The notes under the pieces: generated by a model
Told to the model about the DNA's origin: nothing
Seen by the model: the letters and a program-made list of their open reading frames with translations, nothing else
Database searches by the model: none
Source: a virus
Lineage: Duplodnaviria > Caudoviricetes
Reading direction: 5' to 3' (one strand)
DNA: 41,729 nucleotides
Virus record (IMG/VR): IMGVR_UViG_3300027808_000058
Coordinates: 1-41,729 of that record
Shown: positions 1-35,942 of the stretch, piece by piece
Layout: each line of letters begins with the position of its first letter
Position numbering within the stretch: the first letter of the stretch is position 1
Program-made: the position numbers and the translations under genes

Positions 1-198
1 TCGGATGTGGCAGAAGCACTCCTGCAAGGCATGAGCGTGGTTGCGGTGTACGATGCTATCCCAGCGGGTGTGCCGTCAGCTGATGAAACTGACTTGCGCT
101 TCTTGGACCCAAAAGGCATTATGCTGGGGCTCAAGGCCAAAGGCCGTGCAAAGAAGGACTACAGTGGCTTCGTAATCCGGTTGACTGAGTCAGCTTAA
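1..198 (+). CDS. C-terminal part of a conserved phage protein (GP88/DUF7227-like), truncated by the window start
   Basis: C-terminal motif ADETDLRFLDPKG..LGLKAKGRAKKD.SGFV recalled from this family; frame is open to the window edge. Confidence 0.55.
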   Translation, partial: SDVAEALLQGMSVVAVYDAIPAGVPSADETDLRFLDPKGIMLGLKAKGRAKKDYSGFVIRLTESA

Positions 199-209
199 GA
201 CTGTATAAT
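181..209 (+). promoter_or_regulatory. sigma70-type early promoter
   Basis: TTGACT (181-186), 17 bp, TATAAT (204-209); followed by an AC-rich leader and GGAG at 232. Confidence 0.9.
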
Positions 210-243
210 ATACACTTACACAAACAAATAAGGAGCGAAACTT

Positions 244-789: not shown

Positions 790-818
790 TTGACTGATTG
801 CCCAAAAGGCAGTATAAT
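790..818 (+). promoter_or_regulatory. sigma70-type early promoter
   Basis: TTGACT (790-795), 17 bp, TATAAT (813-818). Confidence 0.9.
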
Positions 819-846
819 AAACACTTAAACACACACAGGAGCAGAT

Positions 847-1137: not shown

Positions 1138-1277
1138 TGACGGAAGCCTTTCTCATCACCATAGAGCTGTGGGTGTTCCTAGGAATCCTGTTGACAGCCT
1201 TGGTGATTGAAGCTATAATTACTACTTACAAACAACACAATGGAGCGAAACATTATGATAACAGCAGAACAGATTAA
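1137..1277 (+). CDS. possible 46-aa membrane peptide (not in ORF track)
   Basis: TAATG stop/start coupling; MTEAFLITIELWVFLGILLTALVIEAIITTY is hydrophobic; it overlaps a promoter, so doubtful. Confidence 0.3.
   Translation: MTEAFLITIELWVFLGILLTALVIEAIITTYKQHNGAKHYDNSRTD
1191..1219 (+). promoter_or_regulatory. sigma70-type early promoter
   Basis: Perfect TTGACA (1191-1196), 17 bp, TATAAT (1214-1219). Confidence 0.92.
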
Positions 1278-1591: not shown

Positions 1592-1620
1592 TAGACAGGC
1601 CCGAAAGGGTCTGTTATAAT
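1592..1620 (+). promoter_or_regulatory. sigma70-type early promoter overlapping a GAAA-tetraloop hairpin
   Basis: TAGACA, 17 bp, TATAAT; stem GACAGGCCC/GGGTCTGTT at 1594-1615. Confidence 0.85.
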
Positions 1621-1651
1621 CTTAAATATTAACAAACGCAAGGAGCGAACA

Positions 1652-2536
1652 ATGGGTAGAGTAGTCACTAGTAAGATGCTGATGGCACTTCAACAAGAAG
1701 TCACAACCAAAAGCCTGGAAACAGAGCCAGTTAAGAAAGACTTGAGCGCAGAGTCAGATGAGTCGATTCTCAATCGTTTGCGTGATCGTTTTGAGATTCT
1801 GGACGACATGACTCGTGCTGTTAAGAAGGGCGATGTACGTGCTATGATTGTGACTGGCCCTCCAGGAGTTGGCAAGAGCTTTGGTGTTGAGAAAGTGTTG
1901 GCCAAACATGATGTGTTCGCCACTGTTGCGGACGACCAGAAGCTGAAGAAGTACGAAGTGGTCAAAGGCGCAATGAGTGCCATTGGACTCTACAGCAAGC
2001 TGTATGAGTATTCAGACAAGAAGTCGATATTGGTGTTTGATGACTGTGACTCGGTGTTACTTGATGACTTGAGTCTTAACATTCTCAAAGCCGCATTGGA
2101 CACCAGCAAGAAGCGCATGATCCATTGGAACACTGACAGCCGCTTGCTACGCTCAGAAGGTGTGCCCAACAGCTTTGAGTTCAAAGGTGGTGCTATCTTC
2201 ATCACCAACATCAAGTTCGATCACGTGAAGAGCAAGAAGCTTCAGGATCACTTGGAAGCATTGGAGTCACGCTGTCACTACTTGGACCTCACCATTGACA
2301 CTGAGCGTGAGAAGTTGTTGCGCATCAAGCAGGTAGTTACTGAGTGTGGCATGCTGGACTCATACGACTTGACGGATGAAGCCAAGCTGGATGTGGTAGA
2401 CTTTGTGGATGCCAACAAGGCTCGTATGCGTGAGCTGAGCTTGCGTACAGTACTAAAGGTAGCGGACTTGCGCTGTAGCTTCCCAGACAAGTGGAAGGCA
2501 GTGGCAGAGGTAACATGTATGCGTGGCTCACGCTAA
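1652..2536 (+). CDS. AAA+ ATPase
   Basis: Walker A GPPGVGKS, Walker B ILVFDDCD, sensor-1 FITN, Arg-finger-like ALESRC. Confidence 0.9.
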   Translation: MGRVVTSKMLMALQQEVTTKSLETEPVKKDLSAESDESILNRLRDRFEILDDMTRAVKKGDVRAMIVTGPPGVGKSFGVEKVLAKHDVFATVADDQKLKKYEVVKGAMSAIGLYSKLYEYSDKKSILVFDDCDSVLLDDLSLNILKAALDTSKKRMIHWNTDSRLLRSEGVPNSFEFKGGAIFITNIKFDHVKSKKLQDHLEALESRCHYLDLTIDTEREKLLRIKQVVTECGMLDSYDLTDEAKLDVVDFVDANKARMRELSLRTVLKVADLRCSFPDKWKAVAEVTCMRGSR

Positions 2537-2540
2537 CGTG

Positions 2541-2710
2541 TACAGCTACAGCATACAGCCGTTAGAAGCTGTAGCTGTAGGCAGTAGGACTGGCCAACGA
2601 TTCGCTCCCGGCAACCAGTCTAAGTAGGAAGAATCAACGCCAAAGCGGCAATGGTTCTTGGATCCCCACCCGTAAATCCGATTCGCTCCCGGTAGGTGGG
2701 GATTTTTTTT
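2541..2710 (+). ncRNA. candidate structured small RNA / 3' UTR element with two anti-RBS loops
   Basis: Four consecutive hairpins; CGATTCGCTCCCGG at 2598-2611 and 2679-2692, each at a hairpin apex; ends in T8. Confidence 0.65.
2660..2710 (+). terminator. intrinsic terminator ending the early transcript
   Basis: ATCCCCACC (2662-2670) pairs with GGTGGGGAT (2695-2703); T8 at 2703-2710. Confidence 0.75.
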
Positions 2711-5164: not shown

Positions 5165-6586
5165 ATGCAGAAAACGCTTAGACAACTCATGGATGACATT
5201 GCTCAAATTGAAGCTGGGTATACCAAGCCACATAGATTAAACAGCTTTAACTTTTATCAGGGTACTTACAATGAAGATTCAAGTTTGGATGAAGTCGCAA
5301 CACAGGGCGGCAAGAAATGGCCCACAGCAGGCGCAGAAATTCGTGCTTTCCAACAGGCCAATCCTCCACTAAAAGTAGACGGACTTATTGGTCAAGCAAC
5401 ACTGGCCAAGCTACAACAATTGGGCTATGTTGCTCCAAAAGGATTTACACCAGTTGCCAGTAAGTCCGCAGTTCCAGGTGCCGCTCCTACTGCTCCACCA
5501 GCCGGATCAGCAGATCCAGCTACCTCACCAAGTGCTAACGGTGCGCAACCAGTTTATAGTATAGATGCTAAAACTATGGCTAATTATAGTCCTGAAGCCA
5601 TACAAGCACGAAACAATGGTAATTTCTTCAGAGTTGCTCGTGATTGGAAAGACGGTACTCCTCCACCAAATCCGGATGGCGACTACGCAAGTACCAGTGG
5701 TAAAGTACAACGTCCAGAGATCATGAAGATAGAAGCTGATCAACAATGGGCGGCCACAGATGGCAATAAAATATTTGTCAACTACGATGGAACCCCCATT
5801 GTTTCGCAGAACAAAAGTACTTGGCCCACTGATCCAAAACATCCGTATTATCACTTTGTGTTCACTGGCACTTCCGGTGAGCATGGCGGCAAAATACGCC
5901 AAGGTCAACGCTATGATCCTTTACGATGGAAATTGAGCAGTTTATTAAAGAAAGATATTCACGGCAAGACACAACTTGATTATAGAACACCAAATAAAGT
6001 ATGTCCTGTTGTAGGAGGCAACGTTCCAGGCTACACCCAAGGTAATGTTCAGAATGTTTGGGGCAAATTAAAATTTAGTGAGTATGGACATGAATTACAA
6101 GCAGGGTGGGTTGGGTCGCAAGGCGGCGCACTTATGTTATCATGGATTCCTATGACATTTACCCGTCCGGACGAAATTGATCAAGCACTGCTGGCCGCAG
6201 TGGAAGAGATAGGCGATGAAGCACAGGGAATATGGGAAAAGTACCACGATATAGGAAAAGTTTCAAAACTAGCTAAGATTAGTTTTCCCAGTCCGTTTGG
6301 TAATGCAATGGGTAATCAATTTGTTGCTACTAAAGGCAAAATTTCTTGGCATTTTGCTTGTGGAAACGTATTTGTCAGAAGTCAATCGGCATCGGGTCCA
6401 CACGTTGATCAAATTACAATATATTACTTTGGGCCAAGTAACGAATGGGCCAGTACAGGTTCATCTGGAATGGCGGCATTATGCGCTGGCTTAAAACTAG
6501 TTAATGGTGTTGAACCGTTGGCCAAAATAACTCCGCCAGTTAACGAAGAACTAGCACAGCTAATAAAACTGGCAAAATTAACCTAA
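5165..6586 (+). CDS. peptidoglycan-binding-domain protein (paralog A), putative internal head protein
   Basis: PG_binding_1-like EIRAFQQANPPLKVDGLIGQATLAKL; TAAATA upstream; C-terminal EELAQLIKLAKL. Confidence 0.8.
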   Translation: MQKTLRQLMDDIAQIEAGYTKPHRLNSFNFYQGTYNEDSSLDEVATQGGKKWPTAGAEIRAFQQANPPLKVDGLIGQATLAKLQQLGYVAPKGFTPVASKSAVPGAAPTAPPAGSADPATSPSANGAQPVYSIDAKTMANYSPEAIQARNNGNFFRVARDWKDGTPPPNPDGDYASTSGKVQRPEIMKIEADQQWAATDGNKIFVNYDGTPIVSQNKSTWPTDPKHPYYHFVFTGTSGEHGGKIRQGQRYDPLRWKLSSLLKKDIHGKTQLDYRTPNKVCPVVGGNVPGYTQGNVQNVWGKLKFSEYGHELQAGWVGSQGGALMLSWIPMTFTRPDEIDQALLAAVEEIGDEAQGIWEKYHDIGKVSKLAKISFPSPFGNAMGNQFVATKGKISWHFACGNVFVRSQSASGPHVDQITIYYFGPSNEWASTGSSGMAALCAGLKLVNGVEPLAKITPPVNEELAQLIKLAKLT

Positions 6587-6615: not shown

Positions 6616-8199
6616 ATGCAAAAAACGCTTAGACAACTCATGGATGACATTGCGCACATAGATGCGGGCCATATCCGACAACGCACTTTGGAAGGCTACA
6701 ATCGCCATGGTAGAGATCTACATCACAAGGAAACCTGGATCTCAGAAGCGCCAGCAATAGGCGTTAAGCCTGCTCCAGCCAAAACAGCACCGATGCAAGG
6801 TGCTAAAAAGTGGCCACAAACTGATCCAGAAATTCGTGCATTTCAAAGAGCCAATCCGCCATTGGTAGTGGATGGAATTATTGGTAAGAAAACACTGGCT
6901 CGACTGACACAGTTGGGCTACGCACCACCCACAGGATTCAAACCAGTAGCAGACAAAGTAATTCCCGGAGCCGCCCCAAAAAGCACACTGGCACCCACTA
7001 CTGGATCAAGTATTATGCCGCCTGCACCAGCCAGCGCCGCACAACCTGCTGTGAATGGTGAAGCTGATGATGACGAGTCCAAGTACACAGTGGATGATTG
7101 GAGAGCACAGGCCGCAGAGCGTGGTGCTGGTCCTGCGGCCATACCAGCCAAAGGTGACTTTAGTGGTGGTAAAAGTGGCAAAGGTCGTATGCCACCGGGC
7201 GAAATGCCTCCCGGTGCCAAACCATTCAAAAACAATCCCACATTACAATATGTGTACAATGGTCAAGTGTATGACCTACGAGACGGTTATCCTATTTCCG
7301 ATGAAAGCCCTATGTTGGCTCCGGGACAGGCAGAAAGAGAAGAAGACAGCAAGTGGGACTCATACGGCAACAAGCGAGGAAGCTATAAGGTAGTGGATGT
7401 TTGCCCTGTGACAGCTGACACTGGCTTGCCCACAGGCGGCAATCCAAACGAAATGGATCGCATACAAAAAGGCTTTGGACGTGGCATGAAACTGGGTGCC
7501 ACTTGGGATTATAAAGGTGCGGCTGTGAGCATATGGTACAGACCCGAGGGTGGCAAAGATCGCATGTTCTTTGACATCAGTACTTTGGCACAGATCATGG
7601 GTGACTGGGCTGGTGCCTTTAAAAGCGTAGGTTACAACATGACCGAAATGAAAGATCTCGGCAAAATAACCAACAGCTTGGGCAATGGACTGGGAGAAGT
7701 ATTCTCACTTGTGAACAGTCAAGGACAAAAGGTACGTGGTGCTGGCAGTGTTCAACAGATTGCATTTACCACAGCAGAAGGTGTAAAGAGTTACGCCACA
7801 GTTGATGTCAGCTTTTTAGGACCAGAAGCCGCATGGTTAAATGGTGGAGAAGCTGTGTGGAAAAACGCATTCATGGGATTGAAAATGGCCCCGGGAATCA
7901 CTCAAATGACACGTACTGAGCGTAAGAAAACTGTGCCCAACTACCAAGCAGATATTGCGGCCAGTACATTGCCAGAAGGTTGGCAACCAGGCCAAATTCC
8001 AAAATTAGAACTTGTGCCCAATACTGGCAAGGACCGGGTGGTCATGTACAAGGGTCGTAGACTGGTAATTACAGGAGGCCGTGGTATATCAACGCGATAC
8101 CCTGATTTTACCGTGGGCGCACATAATTTCGGTATGGCGAGTCGCGGTCAGTTGTCTTGTTGGGTCACTGGCCCAGGCAGTGCTGTGTGTGGTTTCTAG
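6616..8199 (+). CDS. peptidoglycan-binding-domain protein (paralog B), putative internal head protein
   Basis: Same N-terminus MQKTLRQLMDDIA; EIRAFQRANPPLVVDGIIGKKTLARL. Confidence 0.8.
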   Translation: MQKTLRQLMDDIAHIDAGHIRQRTLEGYNRHGRDLHHKETWISEAPAIGVKPAPAKTAPMQGAKKWPQTDPEIRAFQRANPPLVVDGIIGKKTLARLTQLGYAPPTGFKPVADKVIPGAAPKSTLAPTTGSSIMPPAPASAAQPAVNGEADDDESKYTVDDWRAQAAERGAGPAAIPAKGDFSGGKSGKGRMPPGEMPPGAKPFKNNPTLQYVYNGQVYDLRDGYPISDESPMLAPGQAEREEDSKWDSYGNKRGSYKVVDVCPVTADTGLPTGGNPNEMDRIQKGFGRGMKLGATWDYKGAAVSIWYRPEGGKDRMFFDISTLAQIMGDWAGAFKSVGYNMTEMKDLGKITNSLGNGLGEVFSLVNSQGQKVRGAGSVQQIAFTTAEGVKSYATVDVSFLGPEAAWLNGGEAVWKNAFMGLKMAPGITQMTRTERKKTVPNYQADIAASTLPEGWQPGQIPKLELVPNTGKDRVVMYKGRRLVITGGRGISTRYPDFTVGAHNFGMASRGQLSCWVTGPGSAVCGF

Positions 8200-8309: not shown

Positions 8310-8381
8310 ATGTGGACTACACCATCAGCAACAGACATGCGCTTTGGTTTTGAAATCACAATGTACGTAATGAACCGTTAA
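8310..8381 (+). CDS. pqqA: PQQ precursor peptide PqqA (not in ORF track)
   Basis: MWTTPSATDMRFGFEITMYVMNR with the canonical E15-x-x-x-Y19; SD AAGGAG at 8297-8302; followed by a terminator. Confidence 0.93.
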   Translation: MWTTPSATDMRFGFEITMYVMNR

Positions 8382-34967: not shown

Positions 34968-35942
34968 TTACTTCTGACGATTACGAATCATTGCCAAGAT
35001 GTCTTGGGCACGTGAGTCGCCGCCTGCTGAATCAGATGCTGTTGGCGCTGGTGCGGCCTTGGCTACTGGAGCAGGTGTGTCATCTTCATCATGTGATGCC
35101 GCTGGTGCAGGTGCGGCTTTTGGAGTTGCTTTGGGATCGCCAGTGTTTTGGCTCATCCCAGCTGGTTTGAAATACTGTCCCCAACGTTCCATGTCATATG
35201 GTTCGCCGTCGACTGAAGCTTCAAACATTTCTTTCATAACTTTCAATTCAACTTCGCCTGGCTTCTTAGGCAAGAAGTCACTCAAGTTAAACAAGCCATG
35301 TTGCTTGATAGCCGCATGTTCATCGTCACTTAGTGGACGTTCACGACGGGCCCAACTTGATGTTGAGTAGTCAGCATATCCGCCTTTGCTACCTTTCTTC
35401 ATACGATAGTCTAAGCCATGTACCAAGTCAGTTGGCAAATCTTCCAATTCTGGATCAACCAAAGCCGCACGGATGCTGGTAAAGATCTGTGGACCAATGA
35501 TGAAACGACGAATTGGATTTTCTGGCTTCTCGCTGGATTGTTCGCCAAGTCCGTCTTCTGCAACGAAACCTTGGAAAATATAACTGCGCTTTTTCCAGTA
35601 TTTACGACCCATGTCTTCCAGTGCTGGATCTTTGAACCATGCACGTACTTCTGCCAAGATTGGGCAAGTGTCGCCATACATTTCCACGCATGGTACTTGT
35701 ACTGTGATTGGTTTGCTTTCTGATTCACCTTTGATTCCAGCGAATGGCAATTTGATCATTGCACGTTCTACCCAGAAAAAAGTGTTGTCGGTGTTACCGT
35801 CTGGTAAAAATCTAAGTGTAGATTCGCCACCTTCTTTGAGGTTCCAGAATGGATAAATTGACTTATCACCACCTGTACGTTCTCCTGAACCTTTTTGTTC
35901 AGATGCTTTTAGTTTTGCTCGGATTTCTGCTAAAGATGCCAT
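34968..35942 (-). CDS. 32: single-stranded DNA-binding protein, T4 gp32-like
   Basis: LRFLP, C....CP, GYADYS.S.W, flexible acidic/AP tail; SD AGGAG. Confidence 0.88.
   Translation of the reverse strand: MASLAEIRAKLKASEQKGSGERTGGDKSIYPFWNLKEGGESTLRFLPDGNTDNTFFWVERAMIKLPFAGIKGESESKPITVQVPCVEMYGDTCPILAEVRAWFKDPALEDMGRKYWKKRSYIFQGFVAEDGLGEQSSEKPENPIRRFIIGPQIFTSIRAALVDPELEDLPTDLVHGLDYRMKKGSKGGYADYSTSSWARRERPLSDDEHAAIKQHGLFNLSDFLPKKPGEVELKVMKEMFEASVDGEPYDMERWGQYFKPAGMSQNTGDPKATPKAAPAPAASHDEDDTPAPVAKAAPAPTASDSAGGDSRAQDILAMIRNRQK

Follow-up and report, generated by a model that had tools for sequence, protein, structure and literature searches.

The stretch of DNA analysed here, which is referred to as the window, is 41,729 nucleotides long and comes from a large phage, as a fragment with a completeness of 12%. 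The element of interest lies directly downstream from a gene encoding an AAA-type ATPase, whose closest relatives in isolates are those of the PA5oct group, with 45% identity. Four hairpins had been claimed at this site in the original prediction, and the RNA fold of positions 2535-2720 returned exactly these four, with a z score of -2.52 and folds of similar stability in only 4 of 200 shuffles. The features of the locus are:

1652..2536, + strand: AAA-type ATPase gene (phrog_1250, a relative of the T4-like nrdC.10), whose transcript is the host of the element
2541..2579, + strand: hairpin 1 (RNA fold), a stem of 12 perfect pairs that relatives lack or have in varied form
2587..2621, + strand: hairpin 2 (RNA fold), carrying the anti-tag 14-mer at 2598-2611
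2629..2659, + strand: hairpin 3 (RNA fold), a spacer, variable among relatives
2660..2705, + strand: hairpin 4 (RNA fold), carrying the anti-tag 14-mer at 2679-2692, and also the predicted terminator stem
2703..2710, + strand: U8 tract (T8 in the DNA), predicted intrinsic terminator
2526..2710, + strand: proposed RNA of ~185 nt, the 5' end placed weakly, solely from contig starts, and the 3' end from the U-tract

Hairpins 2 and 4 do indeed have unrelated stems and a common 14-mer, CGATTCGCTCCCGG, which begins at positions 2598 and 2679, and in both cases the 9-nt loop is AUUCGCUCC. The core of this anti-tag is predicted to be unpaired, with opening costs of only 0.16 and 0.05 kcal/mol in the two hairpins, and is thus exposed in the loops rather than buried in the stems, which would have been damaging to the original prediction.

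Other features of the surrounding DNA were also recorded. At the 3' end of the ATPase gene (2489-2521), synonymous sites appear to be constrained, with the TGT codon for Cys in 57 of 59 loci, in comparison with 52% elsewhere, and with a preference for GTA (Val) and GCA (Ala), which may mark an RNA processing site or a promoter. A candidate internal -10 element in this region was rejected, as the TAACAT of the window is not conserved. Beyond the terminator, positions 2720-2770 contain the G-rich GGGAGGGGGGTCGGGG, followed by TATA-rich and inverted-repeat DNA, which is kept in many relatives and is possibly a replication origin or some other DNA element. Further downstream, two adjacent + strand genes (5165-6586 and 6616-8199) encode proteins with no Pfam match that share a duplicated N-terminal module starting with MQKTLRQLMDDIA, in which the repeat, in our view, resembles a peptidoglycan-binding motif.

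Tagged ribosome-binding sites of the early genes

Genes preceded by sigma-70-type promoters are referred to here as early, and those preceded by TAAATA promoters as late, a nomenclature that we assume by analogy with T4. The early genes of the window are arranged upstream from the element as follows:

181..209, + strand: sigma-70-type promoter (11 of 12 consensus matches) of the first tagged gene
232..239, + strand: tagged ribosome-binding site (RBS) GGAGCGAA of ORF 244-525, predicted target
790..818, + strand: sigma-70-type promoter
838..842, + strand: GGAGC, a partial tag, at ORF 847-1137, which is predicted to be a weak target (5 bp)
1191..1219, + strand: sigma-70-type promoter (12 of 12 consensus matches)
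1242..1249, + strand: tagged RBS GGAGCGAA of ORF 1255-1581, predicted target
1592..1620, + strand: sigma-70-type promoter of the ATPase gene
1642..1649, + strand: tagged RBS GGAGCGAA of the ATPase gene, predicted target of autoregulation

The presence of the tag at the RBS of three early genes (232, 1242, and 1642, on the + strand), and of GGAGC at a fourth, agrees with the original prediction. The tag occurs five times in the 41,729 bases, that is, at these three starts and, on the - strand, at the two loops (2601 and 2682), in comparison with a chance mean of 0.64 and no case of five in 100 shuffles. All four of the sigma-70-type promoters can run to the one terminator. The pqqA gene, the RecA-like gene (originally named uvsX), and the gene at 34968-35942 carry GGAGAA, as had been stated, and these leaders pair with the loop over only 4 bp, at -6.0 kcal/mol, versus -13.9 to -14.1 kcal/mol for the tagged leaders. 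The name gp32 given to the last of these genes is a label of the earlier note, and a Pfam search of its product returned no match. The presence on a phage of the pqqA gene, which encodes a PQQ precursor peptide (8310-8381, + strand; Pfam PqqA, 1.4e-10), hints at a PQQ-using host.

The tag is also characteristic of the early genes of related phages. Among 537 unique early-type leaders, chosen by their promoter alone, 457 contain GGAG, and the bases that follow are predominantly C (418), G (335), A (318), and A (300). These leaders are otherwise poor in G, and some of those that lack GGAG still keep GAGCGA. A comparison of early with other genes, proposed originally as a check, revealed a marked enrichment in three near-complete genomes, where GGAGCG is found in 26 of the 61 GGAG genes with a sigma-70-type promoter versus 14 of the 211 others (odds ratio 10.5). 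Given that a C following GGAG cannot pair with the usual tail of the 16S rRNA, the tag is not a matter of ordinary Shine-Dalgarno strength. The tagged genes are downstream from both hairpins in one genome (G004) and on the opposite strand in two others (G002 and G003), which argues for an action in trans, beyond pairing in cis.

Conservation of the loop and its co-variation with the tag

Conservation was evaluated in the best 80 relatives of the ATPase in IMG/VR, with 76-100% identity, one of which is near-identical to the window. The pattern GA(T/A)TCGCTCCC was found within 260 nt of the ATPase stop in all 80 loci, with two copies in 75, one in four, and three in one, and the full 14-mer was recovered in 79 loci, on unrelated stems. 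In 99 of 126 unique contexts, the core sits in a loop closed by seven or more pairs, in comparison with 32.4 ± 4.1 when the flanks were shuffled and 50.7 ± 3.5 when the arms were swapped. Outwards from the core, starting 2 nt away on its 5' side and 4 nt away on its 3' side, the columns of the stem hold no more than 0.5 bit, and the apical closing pairs are exchanged jointly (CCG/CGG, GTG/CAC, GCG/CGC). The identical loop is found not only at these ATPases, but also at those with 64-72% identity, and a pattern scan recovered it behind other early genes with a separate terminator, such as a winged-helix gene and a 100-aa protein of unknown function, with two such copies in G004. The conserved unit is thus a loop hairpin that ends an early transcript, rather than a single fixed RNA.

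Outside this group, a blastn search of positions 2520-2720 against 50,697 GenBank phages returned no match. In the PA5oct group, no loop-exposed complement was found 3' of the ATPase, but only an 8-nt match inside a stem, as in PA5oct (L081, 8860-8882), where the 3' arm of the hairpin behind the ATPase is a paired 8-nt complement of the ATPase leader; if this link is real, it would provide a culturable phage. An origin in a host chromosome was considered and rejected, since the search for the loop plus T6 produced 10 scattered GTDB matches, one of them a phage contig in a bin and the other nine with no hairpin context. A contig (L265) in a GTDB bin labelled Ignavibacteria belongs to the phage clade, with 74% ATPase identity, two loops, and six tagged RBS, and is probably either mis-binned or a hint of the host.

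The + strand, favoured by the U-tract in the original prediction, is supported by the presence of this tract on the + strand in 79 of the 80 loci. Single mismatches in the stems, in Watson-Crick-only folds, are G-T in 25 cases versus A-C in seven (p = 0.002, a generous value given that the contexts are related and non-independent). A fixed-window test had leaned toward the - strand, with 219 G-U pairs on the + strand versus 314 on the - strand, and a more stable + strand in 49 of 116 cases, but was set aside in favour of the stem-mismatch test because it is confounded by flanks and U-tracts.

The region is present in 20 RNA runs from lakes, eight of which were examined as unstranded contigs that show neither strand, ends, nor level. 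Contigs cover the element in the runs examined, one of them matching 2513-2707 exactly. In two studies, RNA contigs start at 2526-2527, one of them with eight loose letters, which we take to be an adapter; these starts are at most a weak hint of a discrete RNA. The summed depth falls after 2700, and cover is zero at 2734-2764, in four of four runs, although neither pattern was used as evidence, given that contig depth and gaps cannot show the end of a transcript.

More distant ATPases provide a view of how the loop and the tag change together, which had been proposed as a further check. After the exclusion of 46 duplicates and 26 cut or startless loci, 243 of 315 loci were kept, forming 38 clusters. 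By eye, the lineage with the tag GGAGGAGCAA has the loop TTGCTCCTCC, while GAGGGCA is accompanied by TGCCCTC (in 7 of 10 leaders), ATCCACGCAAA, which lies upstream of the Shine-Dalgarno, by TTTGCGTGGAT, GGAGCCAAC by GTTGGCTCC, and GGAGCTA by TAGCTCC. Other pairs recognized by eye are GGAGAGAGT/ACTCTCTCC, AGGAGTAACTA/TAGTTACTCCT alongside AAGGAGCAA/TTGCTCCTT, and GTGGGAGG/CCTCCCAC. In the automated test, with one locus per cluster, the own ATPase leader was matched in 10 of the 38 clusters versus 74 of 1406 swapped combinations (odds ratio 6.4), and a permutation over the 38 clusters gave 6.75 versus 1.48 ± 0.72, with none of 10,000 as high, while a paired Wilcoxon test over the same clusters was not significant (p = 0.13).

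A cognate match with the ATPase leader was absent from 24 of the 38 clusters in the automated test. In some of these the hairpin is several kb upstream (L344, L346, and L436), and others may have no hairpin. A 6-mer matrix over 13 genomes was noisy, with swapped scores often equal to or above the cognate ones, and in two genomes (G012 and G015), the complementary stretch was not predicted to be a hairpin loop. The motifs, labelled by hand, belong to several clades that have support in the ATPase tree (34 rows). The leader that matches most consistently from one lineage to another is that of the ATPase. The loops found 3' of the ATPase in L266-L275 and L287-L290 contain expanding CTC/CTCC repeats of 17-24 nt, with several anti-Shine-Dalgarno registers per loop. 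Overall, the hairpin set is conserved, with exposed loops that are complementary to a lineage-specific RBS tag and co-vary with it.

Late-promoter leaders and the proposed mechanism

The complement of the loop is not restricted to the early genes. A search for the reverse 14-mer followed by ATG, a pattern built from the loop, in which the length of the match is circular but its position is not, returned 66 matches, 48 of them with TAAATA no more than 40 nt upstream. These 48 matches, which include redundant contigs, open genes encoding CsgF-like proteins (22), a 93-aa hydrophobic/membrane protein (14), DUF4337 proteins (4), autotransporter-domain proteins (3), and a few others, so that the same leader is found on the first gene after the TAAATA promoter across at least five gene families. 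In every case, the complement covers the Shine-Dalgarno, at the usual distance from the start. When the leaders of the 93-aa gene were chosen by protein (69 unique), 30 contained GGAGCG and 13 matched at least 12 of 14 nt. A comparison of this leader with the 3' region of its own genome, in 11 genomes that represent only about four motif classes, gave 102 versus 72.5 ± 7.9 in permutations, with none of 20,000 as high. The ATPase RBS, the loop, and the late RBS agree three ways in G013, G014, and G017. Genes encoding GTA_holin_3TM have the full tag in four of the eight genomes with a known loop (G001, G002, G003, and G014), a partial tag in two, and none in two. The ATPase is present in 7 of 57 late-gene contig records, one of them cut at the contig end, most of the records being fragments. 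For the window's own phage, the late cluster, which would lie outside the window, is inferred.

Two further patterns were observed among the late leaders. In L516, L545, L538, L553, and L559, TCGCTC(C) is located immediately 5' of the late promoter, as though the RBS were to be hidden in cis on read-through transcripts, in the style of T4 gene e. In addition, in some small phages of unrelated gene content, the loop 14-mer has its full complement in the RBS of an endonuclease VII gene or of the gene of a 50-aa basic protein (L090:3000-3015 in G068; also L178, L182, L183, and L128). One of these, G068, is a complete 29 kb genome without the ATPase. These phages may be subject to the RNA of the large phage, or exploit it, or they may point to a host factor.

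Taken together, the sequence evidence indicates that a + strand RNA derived from the 3' end of the transcript probably blocks the tagged ribosome-binding sites in trans. The main rivals differ in where the pairing would occur and in which partner would be the regulator. If the hairpins simply remained on the long early mRNAs, each of which folded back so that they paired with its own RBS, with no free RNA, this would be consistent with the shared terminator of the four promoters of the window, with the cross-lineage consistency of the ATPase leader, and with an RNA-library contig that spans both the coding sequence and the element. However, tagged genes located downstream from the hairpins, on the other strand, or behind distant late promoters are out of reach of this arrangement, and the contig starts shared by two studies weigh, albeit weakly, in the same direction, so that pairing confined to cis appears unlikely. 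The late leaders might themselves be the regulators, with a late transcript, through its 14-15 nt complement, acting as a sponge that takes the RNA away late in infection, or the pair setting a late threshold, and early silencing being a side effect. The recurrence of one leader after the TAAATA promoter, regardless of which gene family (of five or more) follows, and a late duplex twice as strong as the early one are compatible with this explanation, to which we attribute only a small probability, given that the complement is positioned like a target, the early tag is under strong selection of its own, and most leaders of the 93-aa gene have just the short tag.

Exclusion is another possible function, in which RNA made by a phage already infecting the cell would shut off the tagged early genes of a second phage arriving with that tag. 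The tag and the loop do diverge between lineages, like immunity determinants (available text of PMC5320573), but the persistence of the same loop at both 76-100% and 64-72% ATPase identity is slow for an arms race, and the chemistry would be identical to that of blocking in trans; exclusion is thus considered highly improbable. A similarly poor prospect is a reading at the level of protein or DNA, in which a CsrA-, RegA-, or RegB-like protein recognizes GGAGCGAA and the - strand hairpins serve as decoys, or in which the tag is nothing but a promoter-leader cassette that was copied, with the loop being an inversion at the DNA level. The small unrelated phages with the same leader could signify a host factor, and the crude window test leaned toward the - strand. 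Even so, the U-tract is found on the + strand alone, the G-T bias is 25 to 7, many motifs show the reverse-complement co-variation, including one located outside the Shine-Dalgarno, no host-chromosome family was recovered from the GTDB genomes, and none of 10 records has a Pfam match to RegA or RegB, although the control genomes likewise had none. The - strand CsrA decoy, offered originally as an alternative, is therefore disfavoured.

In the preferred reading, of blocking in trans, the host polymerase would start at the nested sigma-70 promoters and stop at the U-tract, and a stable fragment of ~185 nt would be freed near the ATPase stop, by processing or from an unrecognised promoter. Each 9-nt loop would seed on the tag, covering the Shine-Dalgarno and the spacer, in a predicted early duplex of 8 bp (-12.4 kcal/mol), whereas pairing with the late leaders, which are short (CCGGGAGCGAAUCG), would open the apical stem and give a predicted duplex of 14-15 bp (-27.7 kcal/mol). 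The predicted opening cost of the targets is 2.5-3.1 kcal/mol, while the loops open at almost none. As the pairing covers both the Shine-Dalgarno and the spacer, blocking is far likelier than activation. All the nested early transcripts would end at the element, so the level of the RNA would report summed early transcription. By negative feedback, it could restrain the ATPase and the early array, while a few late membrane genes, among them a holin-like one in certain genomes, would be subject to a threshold. The need for a later release, if an early RNA were to repress the late genes strongly, counts against this reading; the late transcripts may simply out-titrate the RNA.

The silencing of a barcoded set of early mRNAs, as originally proposed, is thus sustained in part, by the exposed and conserved loop, the enrichment of the tag, and the co-variation, but the set is not exclusively early, given that the late leaders also match. 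The RNA's own transcript is a predicted target, with 8 bp at the ATPase RBS and the co-variation of the ATPase leader with the loop. The idea of an early shut-off timer is too narrow, as the 14-mer fits the leaders of late-promoter membrane genes over 14-15 bp versus 8 bp in the early genes, and the match to the ATPase and late leaders persists in lineages where early-promoter genes are scarce, which makes early shut-off at most one output. It is likely, then, that in these giant freshwater phages a small RNA turns down the tagged early genes and a few late membrane or holin-like genes as a set. A broader scheme can be offered only tentatively, in which giant lytic phages of a broad group carry, at chosen genes, a private RBS barcode that is read by one RNA. 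This RNA would count early transcription, damp the early array, and gate the late membrane and holin-like genes, coupling the early-late switch to the timing of lysis, with barcode and reader rewritten jointly in each lineage and small phages perhaps plugging in. If the trans reading is true, the lineages would provide natural sets of mutually orthogonal RNA-RBS pairs.

Comparison with known systems

A search of Rfam 15, which had been suggested as a check of novelty, returned no match in the window at the gathering score, and the best hits of a relaxed search had E-values of 3-10 and 12-13 bits, far below the cut-offs, including those of the cuckoo and C4 models. No description of the element was found in the literature searched, although the catalogue of 10,000 candidate viral RNAs in PMC10690425 may list a hairpin of this family unnamed. 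The exact complementarity of the 14-mer to the late-promoter leaders, and the co-variation of the late leader with the loop, are new here.

The closest functional parallels are OppZ and CarZ of Vibrio cholerae, autoregulatory sRNAs derived from the 3'UTR, for which the available part of PMC7398697 describes processing by RNase E and a single operon. There, as proposed here, the terminal part of a transcript yields an RNA that pairs with its own message, inhibits translation, and provides negative feedback, and the element shares the location directly 3' of a stop codon, with the U-tract in 79 of 80 loci, and the complementarity to the translation start of its own transcript (8 bp at 1642-1649). 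The differences are that OppZ and CarZ are bacterial and serve one operon, whereas here a phage displays a seed in a loop, and the shared tag is found on at least 10 separately promoted genes, in addition to the late genes. No phage Hfq was found in 10 records, in a search in which the control worked.

The architecture recalls the cuckoo RNAs of the alphaproteobacteria (RSs0680/CcsR, alpha-r14), as described in the accessible text of PMC4615179, with two to four adjacent hairpins, an invariant anti-Shine-Dalgarno-like loop on variable stems, co-transcription with the upstream gene, and a terminator behind; here, two motif loops occupy unrelated stems in 75 of the 80 loci. The cuckoo loop, CCUCCUCCC, is a generic anti-Shine-Dalgarno, however, whereas AUUCGCUCC reads past the Shine-Dalgarno and changes with the phage's own tag, and only one distant lineage has CUCCUCCUCC-rich loops. 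The c4 antisense RNA of P1 and P7, which underlies their heteroimmunity (PMC5320573), is likewise a phage RNA from a longer transcript, with loops that pair with the RBS of its own mRNA and a specificity that varies between phages. In the portions available of PMC5320573 and PMC12197685, c4 is a cloverleaf cut by RNase P, with two different loops, one operon, and a role in temperate immunity, whereas the element has four separate hairpins, two identical loops, many predicted targets, and no match to the C4 model.

The Cluster K mycobacteriophages have a phage-private extended RBS motif, SAS, on non-structural genes, with conserved positions that are unable to pair with the 16S rRNA. It differs in its sequence and phage group, and, in the part of PMC3203893 available, no reader is identified, the authors leaving RNA or protein open and noting single copies in reverse orientation. 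If the trans reading is true, it would provide a testable reader for unexplained start motifs of this type.

Temporal control in the T4-like phages is achieved by proteins (RegB, RegA, and sigma factors) and cis hairpins. According to the available text of PMC9409239 and PMC3014915, the RegB nuclease of T4 inactivates early mRNAs at GGAG in the Shine-Dalgarno, and hairpins of e, soc, 49, and I-TevI sequester the RBS. The jobs would be the same here, that is, the inactivation of early mRNAs and the holding off of lysis-related late genes early in infection, but a single trans RNA would do both, and an RNA reading a phage-private tag over a set of genes would, if confirmed, be the RNA counterpart of T4-type control. 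On this sequence-based comparison, the element would work like OppZ and CarZ, is built like the cuckoo RNAs without their defining sequence, and would target its own phage like c4, without the defining fold of the latter.
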